Shown: positions 4,069 through 64,000 of the stretch, piece after piece
Layout: each line of letters begins with the position of its first letter
Position numbering within the stretch: the first letter of the stretch is position 1
Assembly (NCBI RefSeq): GCF_057098645.1
Contig: NZ_CM169472.1
DNA: 64,000 nucleotides
Reading direction: 5' to 3' (one strand)
Translations under genes and position numbers: made by a program
Notes under the pieces: model-generated
What the model was told of the DNA's origin: nothing
The model's input: only the letters and a program-made list of their open reading frames with translations
The model's database searches: none

Positions 4069-7181
<3,113 letters not shown>

Positions 7182-8412: not shown

Positions 8413-9338
8413 CATTCGGCGGGGCTGACGCCGAAGTGAGATTTAAAATGCTGACGCCAGGTCACAGGTGAGAGAAAACCCACCTCAGCCGCTATCCGCT
8501 CAACGGGCAACTGACTGGATCCCAACAGTTCCTGGCTACGGCGTAAGCGTTCAGTAATGAGCCATTCGGCGATACTCGAACCGGTCGCTTTCATAAAATG
8601 GCGAGTTAATGTGCGGCGACTCATCATTACTCGCTGCGCCAGCGAGTCGAGATCATGCTGTTGCGCAATGTTTTGCCGCAGGTAATCCAGCAGGAGATTA
8701 ATGCGTTCATCATGGGTATTTTTCGGCACTGGTTGCTCAATAAACTGCGCCTGACCGCCAGTGCGATATGGCGGTACGACCATCCGTCGGGCAATATGGT
8801 TAGCATAGTCGCTGCCAAAATGTTGCCGAACAATATACAAACAGCAATCCAGCGCCGCGGCAGTACCGGCAGAGGTAATAATGCCGTCATCGTCTACGTA
8901 CAACGCGTTAATATCCAGATGTGTTTGTGGAAAACGTGCCTGAAATTCACGCTCGAACTCCCAGTGTGTGGCGGCACGCTTATTTTTCAGTAAACCTGCA
9001 TAGCCGAGCACAAACGTGCCCAGGCAAAGCCCGACAATCTGTGCGCCGTTATCCCGTGCGGTCGTTAAGGCTTCCAGCAGTTTTTGTGGCGGTTTTTGTG
9101 TAATTGTTCCCCAGTAAGGAATTATCACAATATCCGCCTGGATGACTGCGGTATAGTCATGGGTGGCGGTTACGGAAAACCCATCGGCAGAGTCCACGTT
9201 TCCCGGCTTTTCAGCGCAGATAATTACGTGAAAGTGTTTTTTCTCCGCCATTTTTTCGCTAAATACGATAAACGGTACGGAAAGGTGAAAAGGACTAAAA
9301 CCGGCAACGGCGATAATGGCAACAGTTAGCGGGCGCAT
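8385..9338 (-). CDS. GlxA-family transcriptional regulator (N-terminal DJ-1/PfpI-like domain, C-terminal AraC-type HTH), 317 aa
   Basis: N-terminus VAIIAVAGFSPFHLSVPFIVF is a class-I glutamine-amidotransferase-like fold; C-terminus ...RRTLTRHFMKATGSSIAEWLITERLRRSQELL... is an AraC-type helix-turn-helix. Confidence 0.8.
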   Translation of the reverse strand: MRPLTVAIIAVAGFSPFHLSVPFIVFSEKMAEKKHFHVIICAEKPGNVDSADGFSVTATHDYTAVIQADIVIIPYWGTITQKPPQKLLEALTTARDNGAQIVGLCLGTFVLGYAGLLKNKRAATHWEFEREFQARFPQTHLDINALYVDDDGIITSAGTAAALDCCLYIVRQHFGSDYANHIARRMVVPPYRTGGQAQFIEQPVPKNTHDERINLLLDYLRQNIAQQHDLDSLAQRVMMSRRTLTRHFMKATGSSIAEWLITERLRRSQELLGSSQLPVERIAAEVGFLSPVTWRQHFKSHFGVSPAEWRKTFRGMA

Positions 9339-17585: not shown

Positions 17586-17945
<360 letters not shown>

Positions 17946-22501: not shown

Positions 22502-23548
22502 TTATGCCGCATCCGCTAAAACAAACATCCCGTAAGGATGGATTTCGAGGTAATAGTGCTCACCAATATCGGGCTGTAAACGGGTGGCGTTTACTTGTAA
22601 TAAAATCTCCTGTCCATGCCACTCTACGGTCACTTCGTACTGCGGCCCCATGTAGGCGACATGGCGAATAACACAACGCTGACTCTCTTCGCCGTGATTG
22701 CTTAAGGTGATGGCTTCCGGGCGAACGCCGACGGTGCCGCTACCTTGCGCCGGGAAATGCGCCGCGCGCGGCAGGCGATAACCGTAGATATCGACATACT
22801 CTTCGCTAAAGTTCGCCGGGAACAGGTTGGCGTCGCCCATAAAACTTGCCATAAATCGGGAGGCTGGCTGACGATAGAGATCCTGCGGTGAGCCAATCTG
22901 CATGATGTGACCTTTATTCATCACCAGCACAGTGTCGGACACCGCGAAAGCTTCACTTTGATCGTGAGTGACGTAGAGCGACGTGATATTAAACTGCTTT
23001 TGCAGCTCGCGGATCTTATCGCGCATACTGCGGCGCAGGTTGGCATCGAGGTTACTTAACGGCTCATCAAACAGCAGCACCTTTGGCTTGAGGATCAACG
23101 CGCGGGCCAGTGCCACACGCTGTTGCTGACCACCGGAAATCTGATCGACATAGCGGTCCTCGAAGCCTTCCAGATCCACCATTGCCAGCGCCTCCTTCAC
23201 CCGCTGTTTCACTTCGCTACGCGACACGCCAAGCATCTTCAGCCCGTAGCCAACGTTTTCACCCAGCGACATATGCGGGAACAGAGCGTATGACTGAAAC
23301 ACCATGCAGATATCGCGCTGTTGAATGGAACGATGCGTGACATCTTCGCCATCAATAAAAATTTGCCCTTCGCTCGGTTTTTCCAGCCCGGCAACCAGAC
23401 GCAAAATGGTGGTTTTGCCACAGCCGGAAGGACCGAGCAGCGTCACCATTTGCCCTTGTGGAATGGTGAGATTGATATTGTCGATAACCGTATTACTGCC
23501 GAATCGTTTAGTGACGTTGCGCAGTTCAACAAAATTTTTCTGACTCAT
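22502..23548 (-). CDS. afuC: ABC transporter ATP-binding subunit, AfuC/FbpC-like, about 348 aa
   Basis: Walker [10 protein letters not shown], signature [15 protein letters not shown], Walker B LLFDEP; likely start [12 protein letters not shown] with RBS ggagcg; the ORF track extends to 23560. Confidence 0.88.
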
Positions 23549-23559
23549 AGTGCGCTCCA

Positions 23560-25638
23560 TTACGCCTGGTTTTTGGCTTTAGAACGGGAGATACGAGCTT
23601 CTCCGATCAGCCAGTCAAAGAGGAAAATAATCGCCAGCATCACCACGATCAGAATCGAACCATAGGCGATGGCTACGCCATATTCGCCGTCTTCAACGCG
23701 GTTAAGAATGTAGGCGGTTGCCACGCGGGTGTCCGGCGTGACGAGAAAGACGATGGCGCTGACCGTCGTGATGGCCCGCACAAAGCTGTAGATCAGGGCC
23801 GAGAGAATGGCCGGGCGCAGCAGCGGCAGTAAAATGTGCGTAATGGTTCGCAGTGAACCCGCGCGCAGGCTGAGTGAGGCTTCATCCAGCGATTTGTCGA
23901 TCTGCCCCAGGCCTGCAATCCCGGCGCGAATACCCACCGGAACGTTACGCATCACCATCGAGATAATCACAATTGCCGCCGTTCCGGTGAGATAAACCGG
24001 AGCGCTGTTAAAGGCAAGAATATACGAAACGCCCGCCACCGTACCCGGTACGGCAAAGCACAGCATGGTGGTGAACTCGATGGTCTTTTTGCCTTTGAAT
24101 TGTTGACGCACCACCACCCAGGCGATGAGCAGGCCAAAGATAGCGGTAATGGGAGCGGCAATCCCGGCGTAGAGCAGGGTATCCAGCAGTGAAGGCCACG
24201 CGCCGTCGCTCATTCCCTGACCAAATAGCTTGATAAAGTTATCCAGCGTCAGGGTGTAGTCCACGCCCCAGTTCACCGTGAAGCTGCCGTAGAAAATGCT
24301 GCCGTAGAGCAGGGCGTTAAAGGCAATCCATATCGCAAGTATGGCGACCACGCTCCATACCAGGGTGACCGGTAGCGGCTGGACGTCGCCACGGTAGGAT
24401 TTGCCGGAAACCGTGACGTAAGAGCGTTTACCAATCCACATATACTGGATGCAGAACACCAGCAGCGAGAACAGCAGCAGGAAAGCGCCAAGGGTGCTGG
24501 CGGCCTGATAATCCAGCTGCGAGCCGGTAATATAGAAGTAAATTTGCGTCGCCAGTACGTCGAAGTTACCGCCAAGTACCAGCGGGTTACTGAAATCAGC
24601 CAGTGACTGTACCACGACGATTAAAAAGGCATTGGCGAGTGCGGGCTTCAACAACGGCACAAACACGCCGTTAAAGGTTTGCCAGCGGCTGGCGCGCAGG
24701 GTGTAGGAGGCCTCTTCCAGCGAGGGATGAATGGTTTTAATGGCCCCGTCGAGGATCATAAATGCCATTGGCGTGAATGCCAGAACCTGTGCCAGCCAGA
24801 TCCCGGTAAAACCGTACAGCCAGTTGGTGTTGGTCAGCCCAAACCACTCCACCATAAATTCCGTAACATAGCCGGAGCGCCCCATCATGAGCGTCACGCC
24901 TAAGCCGACCACAAACGGTGGCGTAACGATGGGCAAAATGGAAAAGATGCGACCAATAATGGCGCTGCGTTTAGCGATGCGCGTGGTATAAATCGCCAGC
25001 ACCAGGCCGAAGAAAGTACAGCCTATCCCCACCGCTATCGACAAGACGATAGAGTTGACGATCACCTGAACAATATGTGCCTGCGAGAGCACGGTCATAA
25101 ACGCCAGCGGGGCGAACTCTCCCGCGTCGTTGGTGAACATCGGGATAAAAATGGCGATGCTCGGCCAGACGATAAAAATGCCAATCAGCGCCACAATCGC
25201 AATCAGTGAGCCGATCACGAAGCGGTCGCCACCCAGCCATTCGAGGCGGGTTAAGGCCAGCGTCATAATCGCGCCTAGTTCGACAAACAGCACGATGGCG
25301 GCGTAGCCTAAACCGCGTCCAACCACGGTGGCGCTGATGACGATAAACGCCATACAGAGCAATGCCCAGCCGGCATCGAAATAATGACGGCTACGTTGTT
25401 CGCGCGTGGCCTCACTAAACGGGCGGACCAGCAACAGGCTCGGGAGTAAATACCACAGCCAGCTGATATTAAAATGCGACCAGCCGTACGCCCCGAGGAT
25501 CTCATCACTCGTGGACTCCAGCAGGCCATAATCGAGGCTCCAGCTCGGCAACAGGACAAATGCCAGCCAACCCAGCAAAACCCAAAGGAAAATCGCATCC
25601 CGCTTTTTCACGGGATGGAGTGCAAGTGTCTGTGACAT
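23560..25638 (-). CDS. afuB: ABC transporter fused double permease, AfuB/FbpB-like, 692 aa
   Basis: Two tandem multi-TM permease halves; its stop overlaps the longest afuC ORF. Confidence 0.85.
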
Positions 25639-25706
25639 AGCAGTTCCGGTATGGTTGGCCGGGGCAGGCGTCTGCGCTGCACCCGGAAAATACGCCTAAT
25701 GCGGGT

Positions 25707-26738
25707 TTATTTACCCATCTTCACTTCGCTGACCCATTTATTAATCAATGCCTTACGAACATCCGTGGAACCATATTTATCCATGTCGTAGTTGATTAAT
25801 TTCAGGTCGTCGAGCTTCAGTGAATTTGGCGACGTTTCGGCGGTGGTATTGGTCAGGATCTGATAAGACTTCCCTTTCTTCCACGCCAGTTCCTGAGCTT
25901 CTTTTGATAATACCCAGTCCACAAACAGTTTGGCGTTGTCGAGGTTGCGCGCGCCTTTCAGAATGCTGACGCCGCCAATTTCGTAGCCTGTACCTTCACA
26001 CGGGGAAATCAACTCCAGCGGCGCGCCCTGTTCTTTTTCCAGCGAGTAGTCATGCAGGAAGCCAATACCAATCGCCGTTTCGCCACGGGCGGCGTTACGT
26101 GCCGGGGCTATGCCTGATTTGGTGTACTGAGAGACGTTGGCGTTCAGTTGTTTTAGATAATCAAAGGCCTGATCTTCCCCCCACAGCTGCGCAAAAGTAG
26201 CCAGGGCGGTGTAGGCAGTACCGGAACTTTGCGGATCGGCAATTTGAATTTCGCCTTTATATTCCGGTTTGGTGAGATCTTTCCAGCACTTCGGCACCGG
26301 CAGGTTTTTCTCTTTCAGACGATCGGTGTTTACGCCAAAACCGAGGATCCCCACATAAACGGCAGAGGACAGATTCCCTTTCACTTTTGCCGGATCGCGG
26401 AATTTCTCCATGATCTGCTCAAGGTTAGGGGATTTATACGCCTGTAGCAGGCCCATCTCGCCAGCCTGCGATTGCGGGTCTAAAGTGCCGCCGTACCAGA
26501 CGTCAGCCTGGGGGTTTTTCTTTTCAGCATCGACTTTTGCCAGGGTGCTTCCGGAACCGTTGCGGATAAACGAGGTTTTTACATCATATTTCTCGCCAAA
26601 CGCTTTGGTTTCGGCCTCACACATTTCATTGGTGGCGCTGCAATAGACCACCAGCCGGCCTTTTGCCTGCGCGGCACCCGTTAAAGTCGCCAGCGCAACG
26701 GCAGAAGCAATCAGAGTAGAGGTAAAGGTCATTTTCAT
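25707..26738 (-). CDS. afuA: Periplasmic substrate-binding protein, AfuA/FbpA-like, about 343 aa with signal peptide
   Basis: MKMTFTSTLIASAVALATLTGAAQA signal peptide followed by a type-II binding-protein fold; the longer ORF (to 27065) overlaps the upstream gene and is an artefact. Confidence 0.85.
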   Translation of the reverse strand: MKMTFTSTLIASAVALATLTGAAQAKGRLVVYCSATNEMCEAETKAFGEKYDVKTSFIRNGSGSTLAKVDAEKKNPQADVWYGGTLDPQSQAGEMGLLQAYKSPNLEQIMEKFRDPAKVKGNLSSAVYVGILGFGVNTDRLKEKNLPVPKCWKDLTKPEYKGEIQIADPQSSGTAYTALATFAQLWGEDQAFDYLKQLNANVSQYTKSGIAPARNAARGETAIGIGFLHDYSLEKEQGAPLELISPCEGTGYEIGGVSILKGARNLDNAKLFVDWVLSKEAQELAWKKGKSYQILTNTTAETSPNSLKLDDLKLINYDMDKYGSTDVRKALINKWVSEVKMGK

Positions 26739-28051
26739 TGTTTTATCCTTCGAGCGTGAGTGGTGGTGATGCCCGCCATCAGTAACGGCATCAGCAGTAA
26801 ACCCATAAGTACTGCGGCGACCGAGAGTAAACTGAACATTCCCGGCCAGCCGTAGCGTTCGATGACCAGCGACAGCGGCCAGCCTGCCAGCGCCGCGCCA
26901 AGGTAAGCGAACAGGCCGAGAAATCCGGTGATTGAACCCGCCGCAGCTTTGTGCCCACACTCCACCGCCGCAAGTCCAATCAGCATTTGTGGGCCAAAGA
27001 CGAAAAAGCCCACGGTAAAAAAGCACACTGCCAGCAGAGCGTAGTGATGAACCGGTGCCAGCCACAGTGCGGCGACTGACACCATCAACCCCAACGTGAA
27101 CAGCAAAATCATTGGCGCTCGTTGCCCGCTAAACAGCAAATCCGATCCCCATCCGGCAAATAACGCGCCGAGTAAGCCGCCCACTTCAAACAGCATTACC
27201 GTGGCGTTGGCGCTGAGCAGGTTGACACCGTGGCTTTCCGTCAGCCAGATATTGCCCCAGTCGTTAAGCGCAATCCGGATCACATAAACCAGTACATAAG
27301 AGACGCCCAGTAGCCAGATCAGCGGATTTTGCAGCATGGTGGTGCGCAACATTTGCCACAGCCCCATCGGCGGACTTTGTTGTTCCTGACGTAACTCCAG
27401 CGGATCGTGACGCCAGTGACCAACTGTCGGTAATCCCTCTTCCTGGGGCGTGCCTTTGAGTTGTAGCGTTAACCAGATCCCTAATGCCATGCTGATTATC
27501 CCCGGTGTCAGCATCGCGGCCTGCCAGCCCCACCAGTGGGCGGCAAAGGCGCTAATCAGCGGAATAATCGCTCCGCCAATGTTGATCGACATATTCCAGC
27601 AGCCCCACCAGAAACCGCGCTCATTGCGTGAGTACCAGTGGGTCAGCAAGCGGGCACACGGTGGCCATCCCCAGCCCTGAAAAAAACCGTTCAGTGTCCA
27701 GACCACAAGCAGAAGCGTAAGTGATTCGCCAAAGGCAAACACCACGTTCAATAACCCGGTGGCGAACAAGCCGACGCCCATAAAACCGCGTTGTCCATGG
27801 CTGTCATGCCACAGTCCGGCGGTAAATTTCGACAATCCGTAGCTGAGATAAAACAGCGAACCCAGCAGGCCAATGTCGCCTTTATCCAGTCCGAGGTCGG
27901 TTTGTAGCGCCGGAAGGACGTAATTCACGCTTTTTCGCGTCAGATAAAATGCGGCGTAGCCAATAATCATGCACATCAGCAATCGCGGACGTAATGTCCG
28001 GTAGCATTGATTAATTTCTCTCGCTGAACGCGCGTGCATGGTTGTCTCCAT
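26735..28051 (-). CDS. UhpC-like sugar-phosphate sensor/transporter (MFS, organophosphate:Pi antiporter family), 438 aa
   Basis: ...YAAFYLTRKSVNYVLPALQTDLGLDKGDIGLLGSLFYLSYGLSKF... resembles UhpC/UhpT/GlpT; its stop TGA overlaps the afuA start ATG (cAATGAaa). Confidence 0.82.
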   Translation of the reverse strand: METTMHARSAREINQCYRTLRPRLLMCMIIGYAAFYLTRKSVNYVLPALQTDLGLDKGDIGLLGSLFYLSYGLSKFTAGLWHDSHGQRGFMGVGLFATGLLNVVFAFGESLTLLLVVWTLNGFFQGWGWPPCARLLTHWYSRNERGFWWGCWNMSINIGGAIIPLISAFAAHWWGWQAAMLTPGIISMALGIWLTLQLKGTPQEEGLPTVGHWRHDPLELRQEQQSPPMGLWQMLRTTMLQNPLIWLLGVSYVLVYVIRIALNDWGNIWLTESHGVNLLSANATVMLFEVGGLLGALFAGWGSDLLFSGQRAPMILLFTLGLMVSVAALWLAPVHHYALLAVCFFTVGFFVFGPQMLIGLAAVECGHKAAAGSITGFLGLFAYLGAALAGWPLSLVIERYGWPGMFSLLSVAAVLMGLLLMPLLMAGITTTHARRIKQ

Positions 28052-28123
28052 GTTGCTGACTATATGAAAATGAAAGTGAAAGGGGATGAGAGAAAATCCG
28101 GGATACCTAAGACTTTTTCCTGG

Positions 28124-29665
28124 TTATCCGGCGATTTGTTGCAAAAATGTGGGCAAGTTAACAATTACCCGCGTGCCGTGCTGTTTTTCGAGCGTTAAGT
28201 CGCCGCCCAGGGCGCTGACGCGCTCACGCATCCCCTGAATGCCAAATCCGGCCATTTTCCCGCTGGCGATCCCCACACCGTTGTCGCTGACTTCCAGATG
28301 CAATACCTCTCCCTGCTGGCGCAGGATAATCGTCACTTCGCTGGCTTCGGCGTGTTTACAGACGTTATTGAGCAACTCCTGTAATAACCGATACAAGGTA
28401 AAGCGCACCGTTTCGTTTTCTGGTGTGGAGTTCAGTTGATAGGCAAACTGGCAATGAATGCCGCGTTCACTAAAGGCAAATTCATTAATCAGATGCAACA
28501 ACGCTTCGCGAAATGTCAGTTCATCAAGCGCGGGAGGCCGCAACTGGCGCAGCAATTGGCGGGTGGAGAGATGAATGCGGCGGGCGAGCTCATTGATTTG
28601 GCTGGCTGCGGATTGAATTTGCGCCGGATCACGCGCCCGCTTCACCAGTTGCGACTGGATCTGAATGGCGGTGATGTTCTGACCGATTTCGTCGTGCAGC
28701 TCTCGCGCCAGGTTTTTTCGCGTGTCCTCCTCGGTGTGGATCAGCTTTTCCGCCAATGCCCGCCGCGCTGCCAGCTCGGCCTCCAGCCGTTGTCGGTAAT
28801 GGTGCAGGTTTAGCGCCAGATGTTGCTGGCGACTGATGGCAATGCCCAGGCCAATTCCCAGCAAGGCCTGGGTCGCGAGGAAAATCTCCAGCTCCACCAG
28901 GTTACTAAAGCCCACGCCAACCTGGCGGGCGATGGTGATCATCATGCTGCCCAAAAGCCCGGAGAGTACGCCACCTTGCCAGCCAAATTTCCACGCCATC
29001 ACCACATTGGGCAAAAAGACCACGATCAACAGCAGACGTTCAATTTCAGGTGACAGCACCATCTGAGTGCCGATACCAATAATAAAAAACAGGCTACACC
29101 AGATGATTAAAGAGGTACGCAAGGGGGGATTATGCGTATCGAGTCCCAGGAGCTGGTAGCGATGCTGCTGGCGCAGAAACTCAAAGATAAGATAGACAAA
29201 CGGCGTCAGTAATACGCCGCCGGTAAATGAGGTCAAACCCGGCAGCATTATTGGGCCTGACATAAAAGGGGAGAGCAGGGCGGTATTCAACAATGAAGCT
29301 GCCGTGACAGTGGCTAACAGCAACGTCAGACGCTGCCAGTAAAGTGGAAAACGGTGCCAGAAGTTTTGTGCAAGGAGGGCAGGAAACAGGCTAATAACCG
29401 GCGTTGCCAGCATGAGATAACCGTTCAATAGCTGTTCACTATGGAGCCAGAACATCATCAGCAAAGGGGGGAGCACCAACGCAGGCCAGTAGCGGCGAGA
29501 GAGCAAAATAACAAGGGCGAGATAAACTCCCTGCGGGAGAAACAACACCGCCTGTTGACCGTTATTGGTCAGATAAAAGCTGAGCGTCCACAGCATCAGC
29601 CAGCCGGTTCCCCAGGCCAGCACAATAAACAGCGAAATCACCCAATGACGAAGATTGCGCGACAT
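28124..29665 (-). CDS. UhpB-like membrane sensor histidine kinase, 513 aa
   Basis: Multi-TM N-terminal domain, H-box ELHDEIGQNITAIQIQ and C-terminal HATPase region; start ATG overlaps the stop of the upstream regulator (TAATG). Confidence 0.85.
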   Translation of the reverse strand: MSRNLRHWVISLFIVLAWGTGWLMLWTLSFYLTNNGQQAVLFLPQGVYLALVILLSRRYWPALVLPPLLMMFWLHSEQLLNGYLMLATPVISLFPALLAQNFWHRFPLYWQRLTLLLATVTAASLLNTALLSPFMSGPIMLPGLTSFTGGVLLTPFVYLIFEFLRQQHRYQLLGLDTHNPPLRTSLIIWCSLFFIIGIGTQMVLSPEIERLLLIVVFLPNVVMAWKFGWQGGVLSGLLGSMMITIARQVGVGFSNLVELEIFLATQALLGIGLGIAISRQQHLALNLHHYRQRLEAELAARRALAEKLIHTEEDTRKNLARELHDEIGQNITAIQIQSQLVKRARDPAQIQSAASQINELARRIHLSTRQLLRQLRPPALDELTFREALLHLINEFAFSERGIHCQFAYQLNSTPENETVRFTLYRLLQELLNNVCKHAEASEVTIILRQQGEVLHLEVSDNGVGIASGKMAGFGIQGMRERVSALGGDLTLEKQHGTRVIVNLPTFLQQIAG

Positions 29666-30294
29666 TAATGCCCCGCCAGCAGATGGTGGTCGAGCGCAAA
29701 ATGTACCAGTTCAATGGTGCTATGGCAGTTCAGTTTTCCCAGCACATTGGCGCGATGCACATGTACCGTTTTATGACTGAGTTCGAGTTTAAAGGCGATC
29801 TCTTTAACGCTGTCTCCTTTGACCAGTAAATCAAACACTTCACGTTCTCGTGGGGTGAGAATTTCCAGCGCCTGGGCGGGTTGCCCGCCGCCGCGTAAAG
29901 CCCGAATCGCATCGGCACAGAGATAATGCCCGCCCAGCCCGACCGAGCGCACCGCCTGTACTAACTCTTCCGGCCCACAGCGTTTGGTTAAATACCCGCT
30001 GGCACCGGCATCCAGCGCGCTTTGCACAAAGGTTGGCGCGTCATAAATGCTAAGAATAATGGCGCGAAATTGCGGTTTTTGTGCACGCAGGCGCTTAAGC
30101 AAACTGAGGCCGTTTTCGTCCGGCATGGCAATATCAATGACGGCAACATTGACGTCATCACGGATTAATGCCGACCATGCCTGCGCGGCACTACTGTACT
30201 GACCAATGACCTCCAGATCGTCTTCCAGAGAGAGTAATTGTGCGAAGCCAGAGCGCACCACCACATGGTCATCCACCAGCACTACCCGAATCAT
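29665..30294 (-). CDS. UhpA-like response regulator (NarL/FixJ family, LuxR-type HTH), 209 aa
   Basis: MIRVVLVDDHVVVRSGFAQLL... receiver domain with Asp in VAVIDIAMPD; C-terminal HTH ...KEIAFKLELSHKTVHVHRANVLGKL. Confidence 0.87.
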   Translation of the reverse strand: MIRVVLVDDHVVVRSGFAQLLSLEDDLEVIGQYSSAAQAWSALIRDDVNVAVIDIAMPDENGLSLLKRLRAQKPQFRAIILSIYDAPTFVQSALDAGASGYLTKRCGPEELVQAVRSVGLGGHYLCADAIRALRGGGQPAQALEILTPREREVFDLLVKGDSVKEIAFKLELSHKTVHVHRANVLGKLNCHSTIELVHFALDHHLLAGH

Positions 30295-30596
30295 ACTTTT
30301 CTTCTCTTATTATCTAATTCTCCTATCATGCATCACGGCGCGGCGCTGGCAATCAACCAGCGACAGATATGGAATGGATGTAACAAAATGGCAATAATTT
30401 GCCGGAGCGCGCACATCTTATCTGGCTTGTGAACCGGCGGGATACGTTCGCCAAAACCGCAAAATGCGCAAACTCGCTAACCATTGCCGATTTTTTTCTA
30501 AAAACGCTTTGTTCTTAACAAGACCTTTTAATTCCTTTATCAAACTGACCCGCAACGAAATACTGCTCCCATAACAAGACAGGGGAGCAGACAATC

Positions 30597-45010: not shown

Positions 45011-45472
45011 CTTAAAAACCTATCCCGTCTAACACAAAGTGCATACATTACCACGACAAAACGGGGGATTCGCGGCCTTCTGAAAGATTGTTGCAATCTT
45101 CTGCTGACAAAGCGTGCAACGTACTGGTGAAGAAAGTGTGTTATCTCAAAGATGTGCGCAAGATCACAAAAATGATGAACGGGAAGCTAATTTATTCCTG
45201 GCTTAAATGGCAATGCGGTGAGTTTTTTTCTCTTAATTATAAGTTAACGAAGAGAATATATTCCATAACTTTTATTTATAATAAAGGTTGATAATTAAAA
45301 GCCTATATTTTGTGTGGGTAATTATTTAAATAAGAGAAACGTTTCGCTGGTAATCAAACAAAAAATATTTGCGCAAAGTATTTCCTTTGTCATAAAAATA
45401 ATACTTCCAGACACTATGAAGTTGTGAAACATAATGTTAACTTCTCCATACTTTGGATAAGGAAATACAGAC

Positions 45473-45733
45473 ATGAAAAATCTCATTGCTGAGTTGTTAT
45501 TTAAGCTTGCCCAAAAAGAAGAAGAGTCGAAAGAACTGTGTGCGCAGGTAGAAGCTTTGGAGATTATCGTCACTGCAATGCTTCGCAATATGGCGCAAAA
45601 TGACCAACAGCGGTTGATTGATCAGGTAGAGGGGGCGCTGTACGAGGTAAAGCCCGATGCCAGCATTCCTGACGACGATACGGAGCTGCTGCGCGATTAC
45701 GTAAAGAAGTTATTGAAGCATCCTCGTCAGTAA
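45473..45733 (+). CDS. iraP: Anti-adapter protein IraP, 86 aa
   Basis: [59 protein letters not shown]... Confidence 0.93.
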
Positions 45734-45753
45734 AAAGTTAATCTTTTCAACTG

Positions 45754-45771
45754 CTGTCATAAAGTTGTCAC
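45754..45771 (+). promoter_or_regulatory. Pho box upstream of phoA
   Basis: CTGTCATAAAGTTGTCAC, direct 7-bp repeats with 4-bp spacer, about 60 bp upstream of the phoA GTG start. Confidence 0.8.
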
Positions 45772-45833
45772 GGCCGAGACTTATAGTCGCTTTGTTTTTA
45801 TTTTTTAATGTATTTGTACATGGAGAAAATAAA

Positions 45834-47249
45834 GTGAAACAAAGCACTATTGCACTGGCACTCTTACCGTTACTGTTTACCCCTGTGACAAAAGCCCGGA
45901 CACCAGAAATGCCTGTTCTGGAAAACCGGGCTGCTCAGGGCGATATTACTGCACCCGGCGGTGCTCGCCGCTTAACGGGTGATCAGACCGCCGCTCTGCG
46001 TGATTCTCTTAGCGATAAACCTGCAAAAAATATTATTTTGCTGATTGGCGATGGGATGGGGGATTCGGAAATTACTGCCGCACGTAATTATGCCGAAGGT
46101 GCGGGCGGCTTTTTTAAAGGTATCGATGCCTTACCGCTTACCGGGCAATACACTCACTATGCGCTGAATAAAAAAACCGGCAAACCGGACTACGTCACCG
46201 ACTCGGCTGCATCAGCAACCGCCTGGTCAACCGGTGTCAAAACCTATAACGGCGCGCTGGGCGTCGATATTCACGAAAAAGATCACCCAACGATTCTGGA
46301 AATGGCAAAAGCCGCAGGTCTGGCGACCGGTAACGTTTCTACCGCAGAGTTGCAGGATGCCACGCCCGCTGCGCTGGTGGCACATGTGACCTCGCGCAAA
46401 TGCTACGGTCCGAGCGCGACCAGTGAAAAATGTCCGGGTAACGCTCTGGAAAAAGGCGGAAAAGGATCGATTACCGAACAGCTGCTTAACGCTCGTGCCG
46501 ACGTTACGCTTGGCGGCGGCGCAAAAACCTTTGCTGAAACGGCAACCGCTGGTGAATGGCAGGGAAAAACGCTGCGTGAACAGGCACAGGCGCGTGGTTA
46601 TCAGTTGGTGAGCGATGCTGCCTCACTGAATTCGGTGACGGAAGCGAATCAGCAAAAACCCCTGCTTGGCCTGTTTGCTGACGGCAATATGCCAGTGCGC
46701 TGGCTAGGACCGAAAGCAACGTATCACGGTAATATTGATAAGCCCGCAGTCACCTGTACGCCTAATCCGCAACGTAATGACAGTGTACCAACCCTGGCGC
46801 AGATGACCGACAAAGCCATTGAATTGTTGAGTAAAAATGAGAAAGGCTTTTTCCTGCAAGTTGAAGGTGCGTCAATCGATAAACAGGATCATGCTGCGAA
46901 TCCTTGTGGGCAAATTGGCGAGACGGTCGATCTCGATGAAGCCGTACAACGGGCGCTGGAATTCGCTAAAAAGGAGGGTAACACGCTGGTCATAGTCACC
47001 GCTGATCACGCCCACGCCAGCCAAATTGTTGCGCCGGATACCAAAGCTCCGGGCCTCACCCAGGCGCTAAATACCAAAGATGGCGCAGTGATGGTGATGA
47101 GTTACGGGAACTCCGAAGAGGATTCACAAGAACATACAGGCAGTCAGTTGCGTATTGCGGCGTATGGCCCGCATGCCGCCAATGTTGTTGGACTGACCGA
47201 CCAGACTGATCTCTTCTACACCATGAAAGCCGCCCTGGGGCTGAAATAA
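45834..47249 (+). CDS. phoA: Alkaline phosphatase PhoA, 471 aa, GTG start
   Basis: [51 protein letters not shown]...; active-site region [12 protein letters not shown]; the ORF track extends upstream to 45765. Confidence 0.96.
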
Positions 47250-47255
47250 AACCGC

Positions 47256-47292
47256 GCCCGGCAGTGAATTTTCGCTGCCGGGTGGTTTTTTT
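47256..47292 (+). terminator. Hairpin plus T-tract immediately downstream of phoA
   Basis: cccggcag-tgaattttcg-ctgccggg followed by tggttttttt. Confidence 0.55.
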
Positions 47293-47367
47293 GCTGTTAG
47301 CAACCAGACTTAATGGCAGATCACGGGCGCATACGCTCATGGTTAAAACATGAAGAGGGATGGTGCT

Positions 47368-47688
47368 ATGAAAATTACATTACTGGTTACCTTGCTTTTC
47401 GGTCTGGTTTTTTTAACCACCGTCGGTGCTGCCGAGAGAACCTTAACCCCACAACAACAGCGTATGACCTCCTGTAATCAGCAGGCGACGGCACAGGCGT
47501 TGAAAGGGGATGCTCGTAAGACCTACATGAGTGATTGCCTGAAGAACAGCAAGTCTGCGCCTGGTGAAAAAAGTTTGACGCCACAGCAGCAAAAGATGCG
47601 CGAATGTAATAATCAAGCAACGCAACAATCACTGAAAGGTGATGATCGTAATAAGTTTATGAGCGCCTGCCTCAAGAAAGCCGCCTGA
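47368..47688 (+). CDS. psiF: Phosphate-starvation-inducible protein PsiF, 106 aa
   Basis: MKITLLVTLLFGLVFLTTVGAAERTLTPQQQRMTSCNQQATAQALKGD...; internal duplication; the ORF track extends six codons upstream. Confidence 0.93.
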   Translation: MKITLLVTLLFGLVFLTTVGAAERTLTPQQQRMTSCNQQATAQALKGDARKTYMSDCLKNSKSAPGEKSLTPQQQKMRECNNQATQQSLKGDDRNKFMSACLKKAA

Positions 47689-47704
47689 TACCTGATAGTG
47701 CTAA

Positions 47705-47745
47705 CGGGTGAGCTACTAAAATGGCTCACCCGAAATTTCATACTT
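47705..47745 (+). terminator. Candidate psiF terminator hairpin
   Basis: cgggtgagc-tactaaaatg-gctcacccg followed by aaatttcatacttc (weak U-tract). Confidence 0.45.
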
Positions 47746-47789
47746 CTGCCTTTAGCTCCGTCTCTATAATTTGGGAAAATTGTTTCTGA

Positions 47790-48905
47790 ATGTTCCCAAA
47801 AATAATGAATGATGAAAACTTTTTCAAAAAAGCGGCGGCGCACGGGGAGGAACCTCCTTTAACTCCTCAAAACGAACATCAGCGGTCCGGGCTGCGCTTC
47901 GCCCGTCGCGTCAGACTACCCCGTGCGGTTGGCCTGGCTGGCATGTTCTTACCGATTGCTTCAACGCTGGTTTCACACCCGCCGCCGGGCTGGTGGTGGC
48001 TGGTGTTGGTCGGCTGGGCGTTCGTCTGGCCGCATTTAGCCTGGCAGATAGCGAGCAGGGCCGTCGATCCGCTTAGCCGGGAAATTTACAACTTAAAAAC
48101 CGATGCAGTATTAGCGGGAATGTGGGTAGGCGTAATGGGCGTAAACGTGCTGCCTTCCACCGCGATGTTGATGATTATGTGTCTGAATTTGATGGGGGCA
48201 GGCGGCTCCCGTCTGTTTGTCGCGGGTCTGGTGTTGATGGTGGTTTCCTGCCTTGTCACCCTCGAGCTGACGGGCATTACCGTGTCGTTCAATAGCGCGC
48301 CGCTGGAATGGTGGCTCTCCCTTCCCATTATTGTCATTTATCCTCTGCTGTTTGGCTGGGTCAGCTACCAGACGGCAACCAAACTGGCGGAACATAAACG
48401 CAGGTTGCAGGTCATGAGTACCCGCGACGGCATGACGGGCGTGTATAACCGACGTCATTGGGAAACTATGTTACGCAATGAATTTGATAACTGTCGGCGG
48501 CATAATCGCGATGCAACGTTACTGATTATCGATATCGACCATTTCAAGAGCATCAACGATACCTGGGGCCATGATGTGGGCGATGAAGCGATTGTGGCGC
48601 TTACCCGACAGTTACAAATTACCCTGCGCGGTAGCGATGTGATTGGTCGGTTTGGCGGCGATGAGTTTGCGGTAATCATGTCCGGTACGCCAGCTGAGAG
48701 CGCCATTACCGCCATGTTACGGGTGCATGAAGGGCTAAACACGTTACGCTTGCCGAATACGCCACAGGTAACTTTACGGATTAGTGTGGGGGTTGCACCG
48801 CTGAACCCACAAATGAGTCACTATCGTGAGTGGTTGAAATCGGCAGATTTGGCGCTTTACAAAGCAAAGAAAGCCGGACGTAACCGCACCGAAGTGGCGG
48901 CCTGA
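47790..48905 (+). CDS. dgcC: Diguanylate cyclase DgcC (AdrA/YaiC), 371 aa
   Basis: MFPKIMNDENFFKKAAAHGEEPPLTPQNEHQRSG...; membrane MASE2-type N-terminus and GGDEF domain (RFGGDEF). Confidence 0.94.
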   Translation: MFPKIMNDENFFKKAAAHGEEPPLTPQNEHQRSGLRFARRVRLPRAVGLAGMFLPIASTLVSHPPPGWWWLVLVGWAFVWPHLAWQIASRAVDPLSREIYNLKTDAVLAGMWVGVMGVNVLPSTAMLMIMCLNLMGAGGSRLFVAGLVLMVVSCLVTLELTGITVSFNSAPLEWWLSLPIIVIYPLLFGWVSYQTATKLAEHKRRLQVMSTRDGMTGVYNRRHWETMLRNEFDNCRRHNRDATLLIIDIDHFKSINDTWGHDVGDEAIVALTRQLQITLRGSDVIGRFGGDEFAVIMSGTPAESAITAMLRVHEGLNTLRLPNTPQVTLRISVGVAPLNPQMSHYREWLKSADLALYKAKKAGRNRTEVAA

Positions 48906-52691: not shown

Positions 52692-54971
52692 ATGAATAGA
52701 ATTAATATATTGGTCATCTGTATGGTCGTATTTTTTATGACTGGCAATGCATGTGCCACAGAGTGGATCAGTAGCGAGGACCTTATCACCTCTGACTTTC
52801 ATCTTATGACGGCAGATGAGCGCAACGTGGTTAAAGCGGCAACCGACGATAGTATGGAAGCTGCTTATATGCTAAAAGATAATATCCGCTGGTATTATCA
52901 TAATGGTGACCTATCATTACCCGCTAACTTCAGCAATCAAAATAAACTGGTGGTGAACGGTAATTTAACGATTTCCGGCGATTATGATGATTATCTGTCA
53001 GGTAATGGTCATCTGATTGTATTAGGTAATGTTATTGTCGATAACTTTATTAATCATGATTTCGCGTATGTCAAAGGACAGATGACAGCGAAAGGTTTAG
53101 TTTATGCTGATTACAATGATCATAACTTTGAAGTGATGAAGGGAATTAGTGCGCGAGGCATTATTGTTTCCGATAAAGCAACGCAATTTGAAGTCATTAA
53201 AGCTGAATTTTATATCAATGAAGATGGAAGTGGTGAAGGATATAACTGGGATGAGAATATTCAAAAAGCCTATTCACTGGTGACTGCCGATCTTTATGAT
53301 CACACTGAAATCGAAACCGATAACATTTCCAATGCGTATCCTGACTATGATAGCGTCGCAGACAACATCGTTCAGGGTTTACCGCTTTTTCGAGATAAAG
53401 CCGCTCCTGAAATTAATGAGAAATTAAAATGGATTGAAACGGGGAAACTCGATAATTTCCCAGCGAATAAAATAAAGCATCAAGATCCACTGGTGGTACG
53501 TTTTTTGACTCATACAGAGAGTTTATCACCCGCCGTTATGCTGCAACTGTTACAGCACCCCGATGACCAGACGCGTGAATCGATGGCGCAGTCCTGGCCC
53601 GCTCAACAGATGCATTTGCTTACCGATGAATTAATTAAAGATGAGGCTGTTGCCAGAGGGCTGGTTAAAAACAGTAATATTTCCGCCGATGTGAATAAAA
53701 AATTAATGTCTGTACCCGTCGAGAGCGTACAGCTGGAGCAGGCCAGACAGGATAATCTTTCTCCAGATATTGTTGCGTCGTTAAGTCATAGCCCCTTTCT
53801 CAGTGTACGCAAGACATTACTCAGCCATTACGATTACGCCTGGCTGGTTCCGACTGCAGTGGCCGATGAGTTGATAAATAACGAAGACCCGGAGTTACGT
53901 GAAAGAATTACCGGAGCAGATTTAACCGCACAACAAGCAGTGATGTTGAGTAAAGATAAATCACTGAAAGTTCGTGAAGCATTAGCCCGGACGCTTACTG
54001 AATTAAAAATTACCCAACTGTCAGCAACCCTGCGTACAGAGGATATTGAACGTATCGCAGAACAAATGTATCTGGATAATAAAGAAAATAAAAATATCGT
54101 AAAAGCGTTATTGATAGCGTTGCCGGAGATGCGTCAACTGTCTCTGGCAAAAGAAGATGTGCACAATTTGCGCGAAGGTGCGCGTTATCTGACATCGAAG
54201 GACGTGATTAGTTATCTATTGACTCAGCATGATGTTCCCACCGTCTGGGATGAGCTGGCACGCGATAAATTATTGCCGCTGGAATATAAGAAACAGTTAT
54301 GGCAACGCACATTAAATTTAATGATGAGCAAACGGCAAGAAGATCAAGAGCAAGCCTACGAAGTACAGCTGGCGCTGATTGATAATGGTGTTGTTGACGA
54401 AGAGATGTTAAATAATGCCATTGATTTACTGGTTGATTTACCCGCTGAATACCGCTATCGAATGCGTAACCAATTATTTGATAATAAAGATTTACCTTCC
54501 GGAATTATCAACAAACTCGATCAACAGTATCGCTTCAACTCTGACTGGGCGCTGGCTGTTGTCAGTATGAAAAATAGCACCCGTAGGCAAAGTGAAAGAG
54601 GATTACACCGCTGGAACCATGAGGATAGCGATATTTTTGCGGAACTGGCGACGATAAAAGATAAATCAGATGATGAATGGTGGCGTGCATTGCTGCAAAG
54701 TCGCAATGATCATTTGCGCCAAACGGCATTACGCAACGCACATACCCCGGCGTCGTTGTTAACGACATTGACTGAGTCTCAGGATCGGTCGCTGGCTATT
54801 AATAATCCACAGCTGGCTGCCGATGTGAAAACGGTGTGGCTAAAAGAGGATCCATCATTGCTTTTATTTGTCGATCAACCCGATCTTTCGCAGTTACGGG
54901 ATTTAGTGAAAACCGGGGCAACGCGGAAAATTCGCAGTGAAGCGCGTCACCGGCTTGAGGAAAAACAATGA
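52692..54971 (+). CDS. Secreted repeat protein of unknown function, about 759 aa (signal peptide, Gly/Asn/Asp-rich N-terminal domain, long array of helical Leu/Arg/Glu-rich repeats)
   Basis: Signal peptide MNRINILVICMVVFFMTGNACA; recurring segments such as SPAVMLQLLQHPDDQTRESMAQ, LSVRKTLLSHYD, SLKVREALARTLTEL, HLRQTALRNAHTPASLLTTL; AT-rich codon usage; the ORF track start at 52683 is a TTG, the first ATG is at 52692. Confidence 0.7.
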   Translation: MNRINILVICMVVFFMTGNACATEWISSEDLITSDFHLMTADERNVVKAATDDSMEAAYMLKDNIRWYYHNGDLSLPANFSNQNKLVVNGNLTISGDYDDYLSGNGHLIVLGNVIVDNFINHDFAYVKGQMTAKGLVYADYNDHNFEVMKGISARGIIVSDKATQFEVIKAEFYINEDGSGEGYNWDENIQKAYSLVTADLYDHTEIETDNISNAYPDYDSVADNIVQGLPLFRDKAAPEINEKLKWIETGKLDNFPANKIKHQDPLVVRFLTHTESLSPAVMLQLLQHPDDQTRESMAQSWPAQQMHLLTDELIKDEAVARGLVKNSNISADVNKKLMSVPVESVQLEQARQDNLSPDIVASLSHSPFLSVRKTLLSHYDYAWLVPTAVADELINNEDPELRERITGADLTAQQAVMLSKDKSLKVREALARTLTELKITQLSATLRTEDIERIAEQMYLDNKENKNIVKALLIALPEMRQLSLAKEDVHNLREGARYLTSKDVISYLLTQHDVPTVWDELARDKLLPLEYKKQLWQRTLNLMMSKRQEDQEQAYEVQLALIDNGVVDEEMLNNAIDLLVDLPAEYRYRMRNQLFDNKDLPSGIINKLDQQYRFNSDWALAVVSMKNSTRRQSERGLHRWNHEDSDIFAELATIKDKSDDEWWRALLQSRNDHLRQTALRNAHTPASLLTTLTESQDRSLAINNPQLAADVKTVWLKEDPSLLLFVDQPDLSQLRDLVKTGATRKIRSEARHRLEEKQ

Positions 54972-55423
54972 CACAACGCCCCTGGAGCAAGTTACAGCGG
55001 GAGAACTATGACTTACTGACGCCAACGATCAACCTGCACATTCACTGTACCCGTTATCCCATGCGCAGCCAAAATGGTGGAAGCACCGATTTACCGCGTT
55101 ATTGGATCACGTTGGATAAAAACGTGATCTGGGATTACCCGAAAGACTTTATTGCAGGTAACGGTGGAGTGCGTAATTTTCACGGTGAAACTTGCTGGTA
55201 TCCTTACCTGACGGATATTTGTCCAATTTCTGATTTATTGCGTGAATATATTGACACCCCAAAAGCGGAGCTGTTAACAAAACAATTTACCAGCGATAAA
55301 TGGGGGTTAGTGAATATTCTGCGTGCTGCTGACAGGCGAATAGGGATGAGACGATTCGATCAGTTACGGCGTAAAACGCATAATATTGCTGCGCTAAAAA
55401 TTATTGCCCGCCGTAGCGAATAA
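54968..55423 (+). CDS. Hypothetical 151-aa protein translationally coupled to the upstream repeat protein (possibly the ykiA position)
   Basis: MTQRPWSKLQRENYDLLTPTINLHIHCTRYPMRSQNGG...; start ATG overlaps the upstream stop (caATGAca); RBS gagga; contains several Cys/His residues; no signal peptide. Confidence 0.65.
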   Translation: MTQRPWSKLQRENYDLLTPTINLHIHCTRYPMRSQNGGSTDLPRYWITLDKNVIWDYPKDFIAGNGGVRNFHGETCWYPYLTDICPISDLLREYIDTPKAELLTKQFTSDKWGLVNILRAADRRIGMRRFDQLRRKTHNIAALKIIARRSE

Positions 55424-63348: not shown

Positions 63349-63392
63349 TTTTCATAAATCTGTCATAAATCTGACGCATAATGACGTCGCAT
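63349..63392 (+). promoter_or_regulatory. Pho boxes in the phoB promoter
   Basis: ttttCATAAATCTGTCATAAATCTGACGCATAATGACGTCGC, tandem CTGTCAT-type repeats, about 40 bp upstream of the phoB ATG. Confidence 0.8.
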
Positions 63393-63428
63393 TAATGATC
63401 GCAACCTATTTATTACAACAGGGCAAAT

Positions 63429-64000
63429 CATGGCGAGACGTATTCTGGTCGTAGAAGATGAAGCTCCAATTCGCGAAATGGTCTGCTTCGTGCTCGAACA
63501 AAATGGCTTTCAGCCGGTCGAAGCGGAAGATTATGACAGTGCTGTGAATCAACTGAATGAACCCTGGCCGGATTTAATTCTCCTTGACTGGATGTTACCT
63601 GGCGGCTCCGGTATCCAGTTCATCAAACACCTCAAGCGCGAGTCGATGACCCGGGATATTCCAGTGGTGATGTTGACCGCCAGAGGGGAAGAAGAAGATC
63701 GCGTGCGCGGCCTTGAAACCGGCGCGGATGACTATATCACCAAGCCGTTTTCGCCGAAGGAGCTGGTGGCGCGAATCAAAGCGGTAATGCGCCGTATTTC
63801 GCCAATGGCGGTGGAAGAGGTGATTGAGATGCAGGGATTAAGTCTCGACCCGACATCTCACCGGGTGATGGCGGGCGAAGAGCCGCTGGAGATGGGGCCG
63901 ACAGAATTTAAACTGCTGCACTTTTTTATGACGCATCCTGAACGCGTGTACAGCCGCGAGCAGCTGTTAAACCACGTCTGGGGAACTAACGTGTATGTGG
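63429..64000 (+). CDS. phoB: Phosphate regulon response regulator PhoB, N-terminal 190 aa (3' end outside window)
   Basis: [72 protein letters not shown]... Confidence 0.96.

Follow-up and report, generated by a model that had tools for sequence, protein, structure and literature searches.

Pho boxes upstream of phoA and phoB in a 64-kb stretch of the Escherichia coli chromosome, and the transcription of psiF behind phoA

Introduction

The genes phoA and phoB, both of which lie in the stretch of DNA studied here (64 kb in all, hereafter the window), are preceded by TGTCA-type repeats, and the locus raises the question of whether these repeats are PhoB binding sites of the Pho regulon, which bases belong to them, and how psiF, which follows phoA, could be expressed from behind a terminator-like hairpin. 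In the known arrangement, a dimer of phosphorylated PhoB is bound to two 11-bp tandem repeats, with the TGTCA tract contacted in the major groove and the A/T-rich bases in the minor groove; PhoB fills the -35 position and brings sigma-70 polymerase to the promoter, with strict requirements on spacing. The original prediction, made from the letters of the sequence, regarded one element before phoA and a longer series of repeats before phoB as canonical PhoB sites, and it held that some read-through of the phoA hairpin would be needed if psiF were to be expressed together with phoA.

Materials and Methods

The binding motif was taken from the 59 instances given in Table 1 of a PhoB ChIP-seq study of E. 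coli K-12 (Fitzgerald et al. 2023, PMC10294691). An 18-column log-odds matrix was built from 56 of these sites, the three instances that lie in the window having been removed, and both strands were scanned (about 128,000 positions). Chance rates were obtained from 200 dinucleotide-preserving shuffles of the window, and Pho-box half-sites were reported from a cut-off of 3 bits.

Results

The window and its genes

The window is E. coli chromosomal DNA with 99.9% identity to O145:H28 strains; E. coli O145 RM9872 is colinear with its whole length (19 mismatches in 64 kb), and the 2.4 kb around the phoA site were matched in 5,425 of 5,426 complete E. coli genomes. According to the annotation of RM9872 and K-12, the genes are arranged in the order cynT, cynS, cynX, lacAYZI, the mhp genes, the frm genes, a sugar-phosphate/ABC transporter cluster, tauABCD and hemB, and further on ddlA (minus strand), iraP, phoA, psiF, adrA/dgcC and proC, followed at the far end by sbcC and sbcD (both on the minus strand) and phoB. 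The features that bear on the Pho sites are collected in Table 1.

Table 1. Coordinates of the Pho-related features in the window and of the three best matrix matches.
Feature	Position	Strand	Remarks
phoA Pho box	45754..45775	+	18-mer CTGTCATAAAGTTGTCAC at 45754-45771; 22-bp PhoB-dimer footprint ends at 45775
phoA -10 hexamer TATAGT	45782..45787	+	read from the sequence; without -35 consensus
phoA CDS (alkaline phosphatase)	45834..47249	+	GTG start, 1416 nt
Intrinsic-terminator-like hairpin and T7	47255..47284 and 47286..47292	+	5 nt past the phoA TAA
psiF CDS	47368..47688	+	ATG start; probable distal gene of a phoA-psiF transcription unit
phoB activator Pho box	63349..63370	+	TTTTCATAAAT CTGTCATAAAT; tracts TTTCA at 63350 and TGTCA at 63361; 21.5 bits
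phoB -10 hexamer CATAAT	63377..63382	+	read from the sequence; flanked by the CGTCA tract pair of the repression site
Weak PhoB site for autorepression, overlapping the phoB -10	63365..63393	-	two antisense CGTCA tracts 5 bp apart; core 63372-63386
phoB CDS	63430..64000	+	ATG start; first 571 nt, truncated by the window end
Matrix match, rank 1	63350-63367	+	TTTCATAAATCTGTCATA; 21.5 bits; 0.00 equal hits per shuffled window (0/200)
Matrix match, rank 2	45755-45772	+	TGTCATAAAGTTGTCACG; 19.9 bits; 0.01 equal hits per shuffled window
Matrix match, rank 3, inside phoB	63532-63549	-	ATTCACAGCACTGTCATA; 16.4 bits; 0.29 equal hits per shuffled window

Some parts of the window deserve a separate remark. 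The mechanical call of open reading frames extended phoA by 45765-45833 to a TTG within the Pho box; the K-12 and O145 annotation has the gene begin at its true start, the GTG of 45834. At 52692-55423 lie intact genes of the DUF2773 (2.28 kb) and SF0329 families, where the K-12 counterpart consists only of the ykiA pseudogene and ykiD, and the distance between phoA and phoB is therefore about 2.2 kb greater than in K-12. On the minus strand of 22502-30294, the annotation of O145 RM9872 places an FbpC-like ABC transporter, a UhpC-like receptor, a MASE1 histidine kinase and a response regulator, a cluster which we take to resemble the AfuABC sugar-phosphate uptake island and whose content presumably differs from that of K-12 at this place. 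Three tandem REP-type elements between mhpE and mhpT (17646-17923) matched naRNA4 of Rfam (RF02564), and an Rfam scan of the whole window gave no match at the phoA or phoB loci, REP-type naRNA4 being found elsewhere only.

Matrix scan and comparison with K-12 ChIP-seq

A Pho-box matrix scan had been proposed as a check on the two sites, and it placed the phoB box first and the phoA box second in the window (Table 1). The training sites have a median of 15.2 bits and a maximum of 23.7, so that both boxes fall in the range of sites bound in vivo. When the K-12 peak centres 417093, 401676 and 417245 are converted to window coordinates, they come to lie at 63381, 45763 and 63533, which are the top three matrix loci, and for this stretch of the chromosome no further ChIP-seq peaks are given in Table 1 of the K-12 study (PMC10294691). 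Because the top three matches are the three peaks, a matrix blind to these sites recovers exactly those occupied in vivo in K-12. The phoA and phoB box sequences are both listed in that table as in vivo PhoB sites (PMC10294691) and are identical to K-12; to this extent the view that both are canonical PhoB sites was borne out, but it had overlooked the third ChIP-seq site, on the minus strand inside phoB, whose sequence (ATTCACAGCACTGTCATA) matches that of the motif at K-12 peak 417245.

Weaker matches of 13-15.5 bits, at 8874-8891, 7095-7112, 30379-30396 and 47367-47384, were considered as PhoB sites and rejected, since about 0.5 to 4 such matches are expected by chance. The one at 8874-8891 (plus strand, GGTAATAATGCCGTCATC, 15.5 bits, about 0.5 equal matches by chance) lies within a GlxA-family regulator gene that we assume to be absent from K-12, and for this reason K-12 ChIP-seq would not cover it. 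The match at 7095-7112 (plus strand, AGTCACGACGTTGTAATA, 15.2 bits) is antisense to the 5' end of lacZ, in what we take to be the classic M13 sequencing-primer region, with presumably one synonymous base different from the K-12 sequence; no K-12 ChIP-seq peak is listed for it. The match at 47367-47384 (minus strand, 13.25 bits) covers the psiF start codon, is at chance level and has the wrong orientation for activation of psiF. Table 1 of the K-12 study (PMC10294691) contains no PhoB-bound region in 332492–401676; K-12 may or may not carry the sequences of these lower hits.

The phoA promoter

Before phoA, the 18-mer CTGTCATAAAGTTGTCAC was found on the plus strand at exactly the coordinates originally given for it, and the window holds no second match when up to 3 mismatches are allowed (0.01 expected by chance). 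Its TGTCA tracts begin at 45755 and 45766, and the exact core TGTCA-N6-TGTCA occurs once in 64 kb, at phoA (0.08 expected). From the 18-mer it is 10 bp to the hexamer TATAGT and 62 bp to the phoA GTG; we take this hexamer (45782-45787) to be the phoA -10 of the classical phoA promoter literature. PMC8601176 gives the same 18-mer, letter for letter, as the phoA PHO box.

According to published work on the same sequences, the affinity of the phoA box is below that of the phoB box (Kd ~0.6 uM for phoA), and the weaker binding has been explained by G/C at minor-groove positions (AAAG and GGCC); the matrix scores of 19.9 bits for phoA and 21.5 bits for phoB follow the same order as these affinities. 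Despite its weaker box, the output of phoA is very high and comes later in starvation. In K-12, deletion of phoB lowers phoA RNA from 310,112 to 1,548 counts, i.e. 200-fold (PMC10294691 Table 1), and a microarray study of EHEC O157:H7 found phoA to be 131-fold Pi-dependent and 59-fold PhoB-dependent.

Upstream, the iraP stop codon is separated from the phoA Pho box by only 20 bp (45734-45753), and no terminator-like hairpin was seen between the two, so that some iraP transcription could enter phoA. In K-12 RNA-seq, iraP itself is only ~2.4-fold PhoB-dependent.

The two promoters are built alike: the boxes both lie on the strand of their own gene, and in each of them 16 bp lead from the start of the proximal TGTCA to the -10 hexamer (TATAGT at phoA, CATAAT at phoB). 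A sigma-70 consensus scan found no -35/-10 pair at phoA or at phoB, a null that does not count against either promoter, as it is to be expected of activator-dependent promoters without a -35 element. In repeat architecture, matrix score, placement and direction with respect to the -10, and lack of a -35, both have the sequence characters of PhoB-activated promoters.

The phoB promoter: activator box and autorepression site

The tandem repeat described before phoB is real, but its unit was given somewhat loosely: the 14-mer CTGTCATAAATCTG, supposed to be repeated, occurs exactly only once (63360-63373), the copy that precedes it reads TTTTCATAAATCTG, and the exact tandem unit is the 11-mer TCATAAATCTG, present in two copies (63352-63373). 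The box itself has the form TTTCA-N6-TGTCA. The extent of the canonical sites also has to be revised, in that 63349-63370 is the activator box, whereas 63371-63392 belongs to a weak antisense autorepression site overlapping the -10. A published EMSA probe (AATGCGACGTCATTATGCGTCAGATTTAT) aligns to 63365-63393 on the minus strand with 0 mismatches (PMC6194859), and this site binds PhoB~P weakly, with a Kd of 4.9 uM (Gao and Stock 2018, PMC6194859).

Taken literally, the original prediction would make 63349-63392 a single array of four Pho-box repeats on the same strand, all of them activating, and there is some basis for this, as TTTCA at 63350, TGTCA at 63361 and a TGACG tract at 63372 follow one another in steps of 11 bp, and Gao and Stock noted an additional plus-strand half-site adjoining the box (PMC6194859). 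However, we found no plus-strand half-site of at least 3 bits in 63370-63392, whereas the minus strand gives half-sites of 5.5 and 3.2 bits in the autorepression stretch, and the spacing of the last two tracts, which straddle the -10, is 10 bp and not 11. In mutants built with the -10 left intact, moreover, mutation of both tracts relieved the fall of phoB promoter activity that is seen at high PhoB, and improvement of one tract made the fall deeper (PMC6194859). A uniform activating array is thus very improbable, and we retain the division into an activator box and an autorepression site, from which it follows that the phoB promoter is under positive autoregulation and, coupled to it, under negative feedback. 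Deletion of phoB in K-12 reduces phoB RNA from 32,731 to 34 counts (about 960-fold; PMC10294691 Table 1).

Identity to K-12 and conservation

The phoB upstream region and gene start are identical to K-12 in 209 of 209 aligned bases, and at phoA the identity extends without a break from 45753 over box, spacer, -10 and leader to the GTG and into the gene. The sole difference from K-12 in the two promoters is A→T at 45752 (CAACAGCTGTCAT to CAACTGCTGTCAT); it falls outside the box, as the 22-bp PhoB site of phoA begins two bases further downstream. The T allele is rare, 26 of 5,261 E. coli records being exact over 45740–45800, with the closest O145 strains among these. Among complete E. coli records, a 61-base segment of the phoB promoter is identical in 5,389 of 5,424, and a 43-base segment of phoA, from the box to about +1, in 4,659 of 5,420. 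Three variant strains carry single-base changes at the beginning of the second phoA repeat (TTGTCAC to CTGTCAC or TTTTCAC), one of them with two additional base changes directly past the phoA box.

For the K-12 sequence, which is identical, the literature documents PhoB occupancy in vivo, dependence of expression on PhoB, and autorepression. With binding and regulation in vivo carried over from that sequence, we regard the phoA and phoB sites as the classical E. coli promoters of the Pho regulon, a reading to which we give a probability of about 0.97. That the matches are chance look-alikes without function in this strain is hardly conceivable, as their scores are far above those of all or nearly all shuffles, their sequences are identical to K-12 sites that have been bound and mutated, and they are nearly invariant among ~5,400 E. 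coli genomes.

Transcription of psiF

Between the last base of the phoA stop codon (47249) and the psiF ATG (47368) lies the gap of 118 bp that had been claimed, and the hairpin (47255-47284) with its T7 does precede psiF, as had also been said. The stem of the hairpin counts 13 bp, 9 of them G-C, and closes on a loop of 4 nt (-28.5 kcal/mol, z = -5.8; 0 of 200 shuffles were as stable), and both hairpin and T7 are identical to K-12. As a G+C-rich stem-loop followed by a U tract and located after a stop codon, it has the sequence features of an intrinsic (Rho-independent) terminator.

In K-12, DESeq2-normalised counts of psiF fall from 36,626 and 28,610 in the wild type (~32.6k) to 852 and 659 when phoB is deleted (~0.76k), so that psiF is 43-fold PhoB-dependent as against 200-fold for phoA. 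Expressed as reads per base in the wild type, psiF reaches ~102 and phoA 219, a ratio of 0.46; provided that psiF lacks a separate promoter, termination at the phoA hairpin would be incomplete because psiF is read at about 0.46 of the phoA density. In the phoB deletion the order is reversed, with 2.35 reads per base for psiF against 1.09 for phoA, and this higher basal density may reflect some weak PhoB-independent transcription of psiF.

These figures could also be accommodated if psiF were driven by its own PhoB-dependent promoter, located in the 118-bp gap or in the 3' end of phoA, with the hairpin stopping essentially all phoA transcripts. The hairpin and T7 form, after all, a well-formed intrinsic terminator, the basal density of psiF exceeds that of phoA, and the match of 13.25 bits over the psiF start codon might be taken for a binding site. 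That match, however, is misoriented, and ~4 matches of at least 12 bits are expected per window by chance; the gap contains no plus-strand Pho box (best matrix score -0.63 bits), no sigma-70-like promoter was found by consensus scan on the plus strand of 45436-47900, the K-12 study reports no PhoB-bound region between 401676 and 417093 (PMC10294691 Table 1), and the literature treats phoA-psiF as one operon. A separate PhoB-dependent promoter therefore seems unlikely to us.

The simplest reading is that transcription reaches psiF by read-through, past a leaky phoA terminator. The two genes are on the same strand, no PhoB site precedes psiF, and psiF induction is PhoB-dependent, as would be the case in a phoA-psiF operon. 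The original proposal that psiF needs read-through fits the gap without a Pho box, the absence of a K-12 peak and the 43-fold induction, and these data suggest the read-through step itself. Expression of psiF in this way would explain the literature name phoA-psiF for the unit. A literature search returned no paper that maps the phoA 3' end or a bicistronic phoA-psiF RNA, the papers found on phoA-psiF giving the operon name only, and the strength of the hairpin (-28.5 kcal/mol) sits slightly awkwardly with an apparent read-through of 46%.

The base at 45752 lies within the A/T-rich spacer of a weak third half-site (CTTTTCAACtG, 45743-45753), which is in phase with the phoA box, its TTTCA (45745-45749) being placed exactly 11 bp before the first phoA TGTCA. 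One could speculate that the T at 45752 alters the cooperative loading of PhoB~P, and through it when or how strongly phoA-psiF is induced in the EHEC-related lineage, and, separately, that the phoA hairpin is a tuned partial terminator which fixes phoA:psiF at ~2:1; both ideas are long shots.

Discussion

The features of the window can be combined into a scheme of the following kind. When phosphate is limiting, PhoB is phosphorylated by its sensor kinase PhoR, and two 11-bp direct repeats, each made up of TGTCA followed by A/T-rich bases, are then bound head-to-tail by a PhoB dimer. These repeats take the place of the -35, and bound PhoB recruits sigma-70 RNA polymerase to a promoter that is otherwise weak and has only a -10. 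The box at 45754-45775 would drive phoA in this manner, and transcription passing the leaky hairpin and T7 (47255-47292) would probably express psiF as well, while the box at 63349-63370 would provide positive autoregulation of phoBR, and the antisense site over the -10 (63365-63393) would allow high levels of PhoB~P to shut the phoB promoter down.

All elements of this scheme, namely the phoA box, the phoB box, the autorepression site, the intragenic phoB site and the phoA-psiF unit, are already known in E. coli. The value of the analysis is that of a positive control only: two of the best-characterised binding sites of a response regulator were placed to the exact base, and an independent matrix derived from ChIP-seq recovered all three in vivo PhoB sites of the 64 kb as its top three matches. 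No new question is raised, the fine structure of the phoB promoter and the intragenic site having been published before.

Compared with known systems, the phoA promoter equals that of K-12 (CTGTCATAAAGTTGTCAC) from 45753 on and differs from it by the A-to-T change at 45752, and the K-12 phoBR promoter, with its activator box and autorepression site (Gao and Stock 2018), shows no detectable difference from the window. The site inside phoB (ATTCACAGCACTGTCATA) equals the K-12 motif and is comparable to the transcriptionally inert intragenic PhoB sites described by Fitzgerald et al. (2023), although, unlike for these, its effect cannot be assessed even in K-12, where the phoB deletion removes the site. 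The pstS promoter box (TGTCATAAAACTGTCATA), which lies outside the window, has the direct-repeat architecture in common with the phoA and phoB boxes, but it is nearer to the consensus and has the top ChIP score, 38 as against 20 for phoA and 11 for phoB (PMC10294691).
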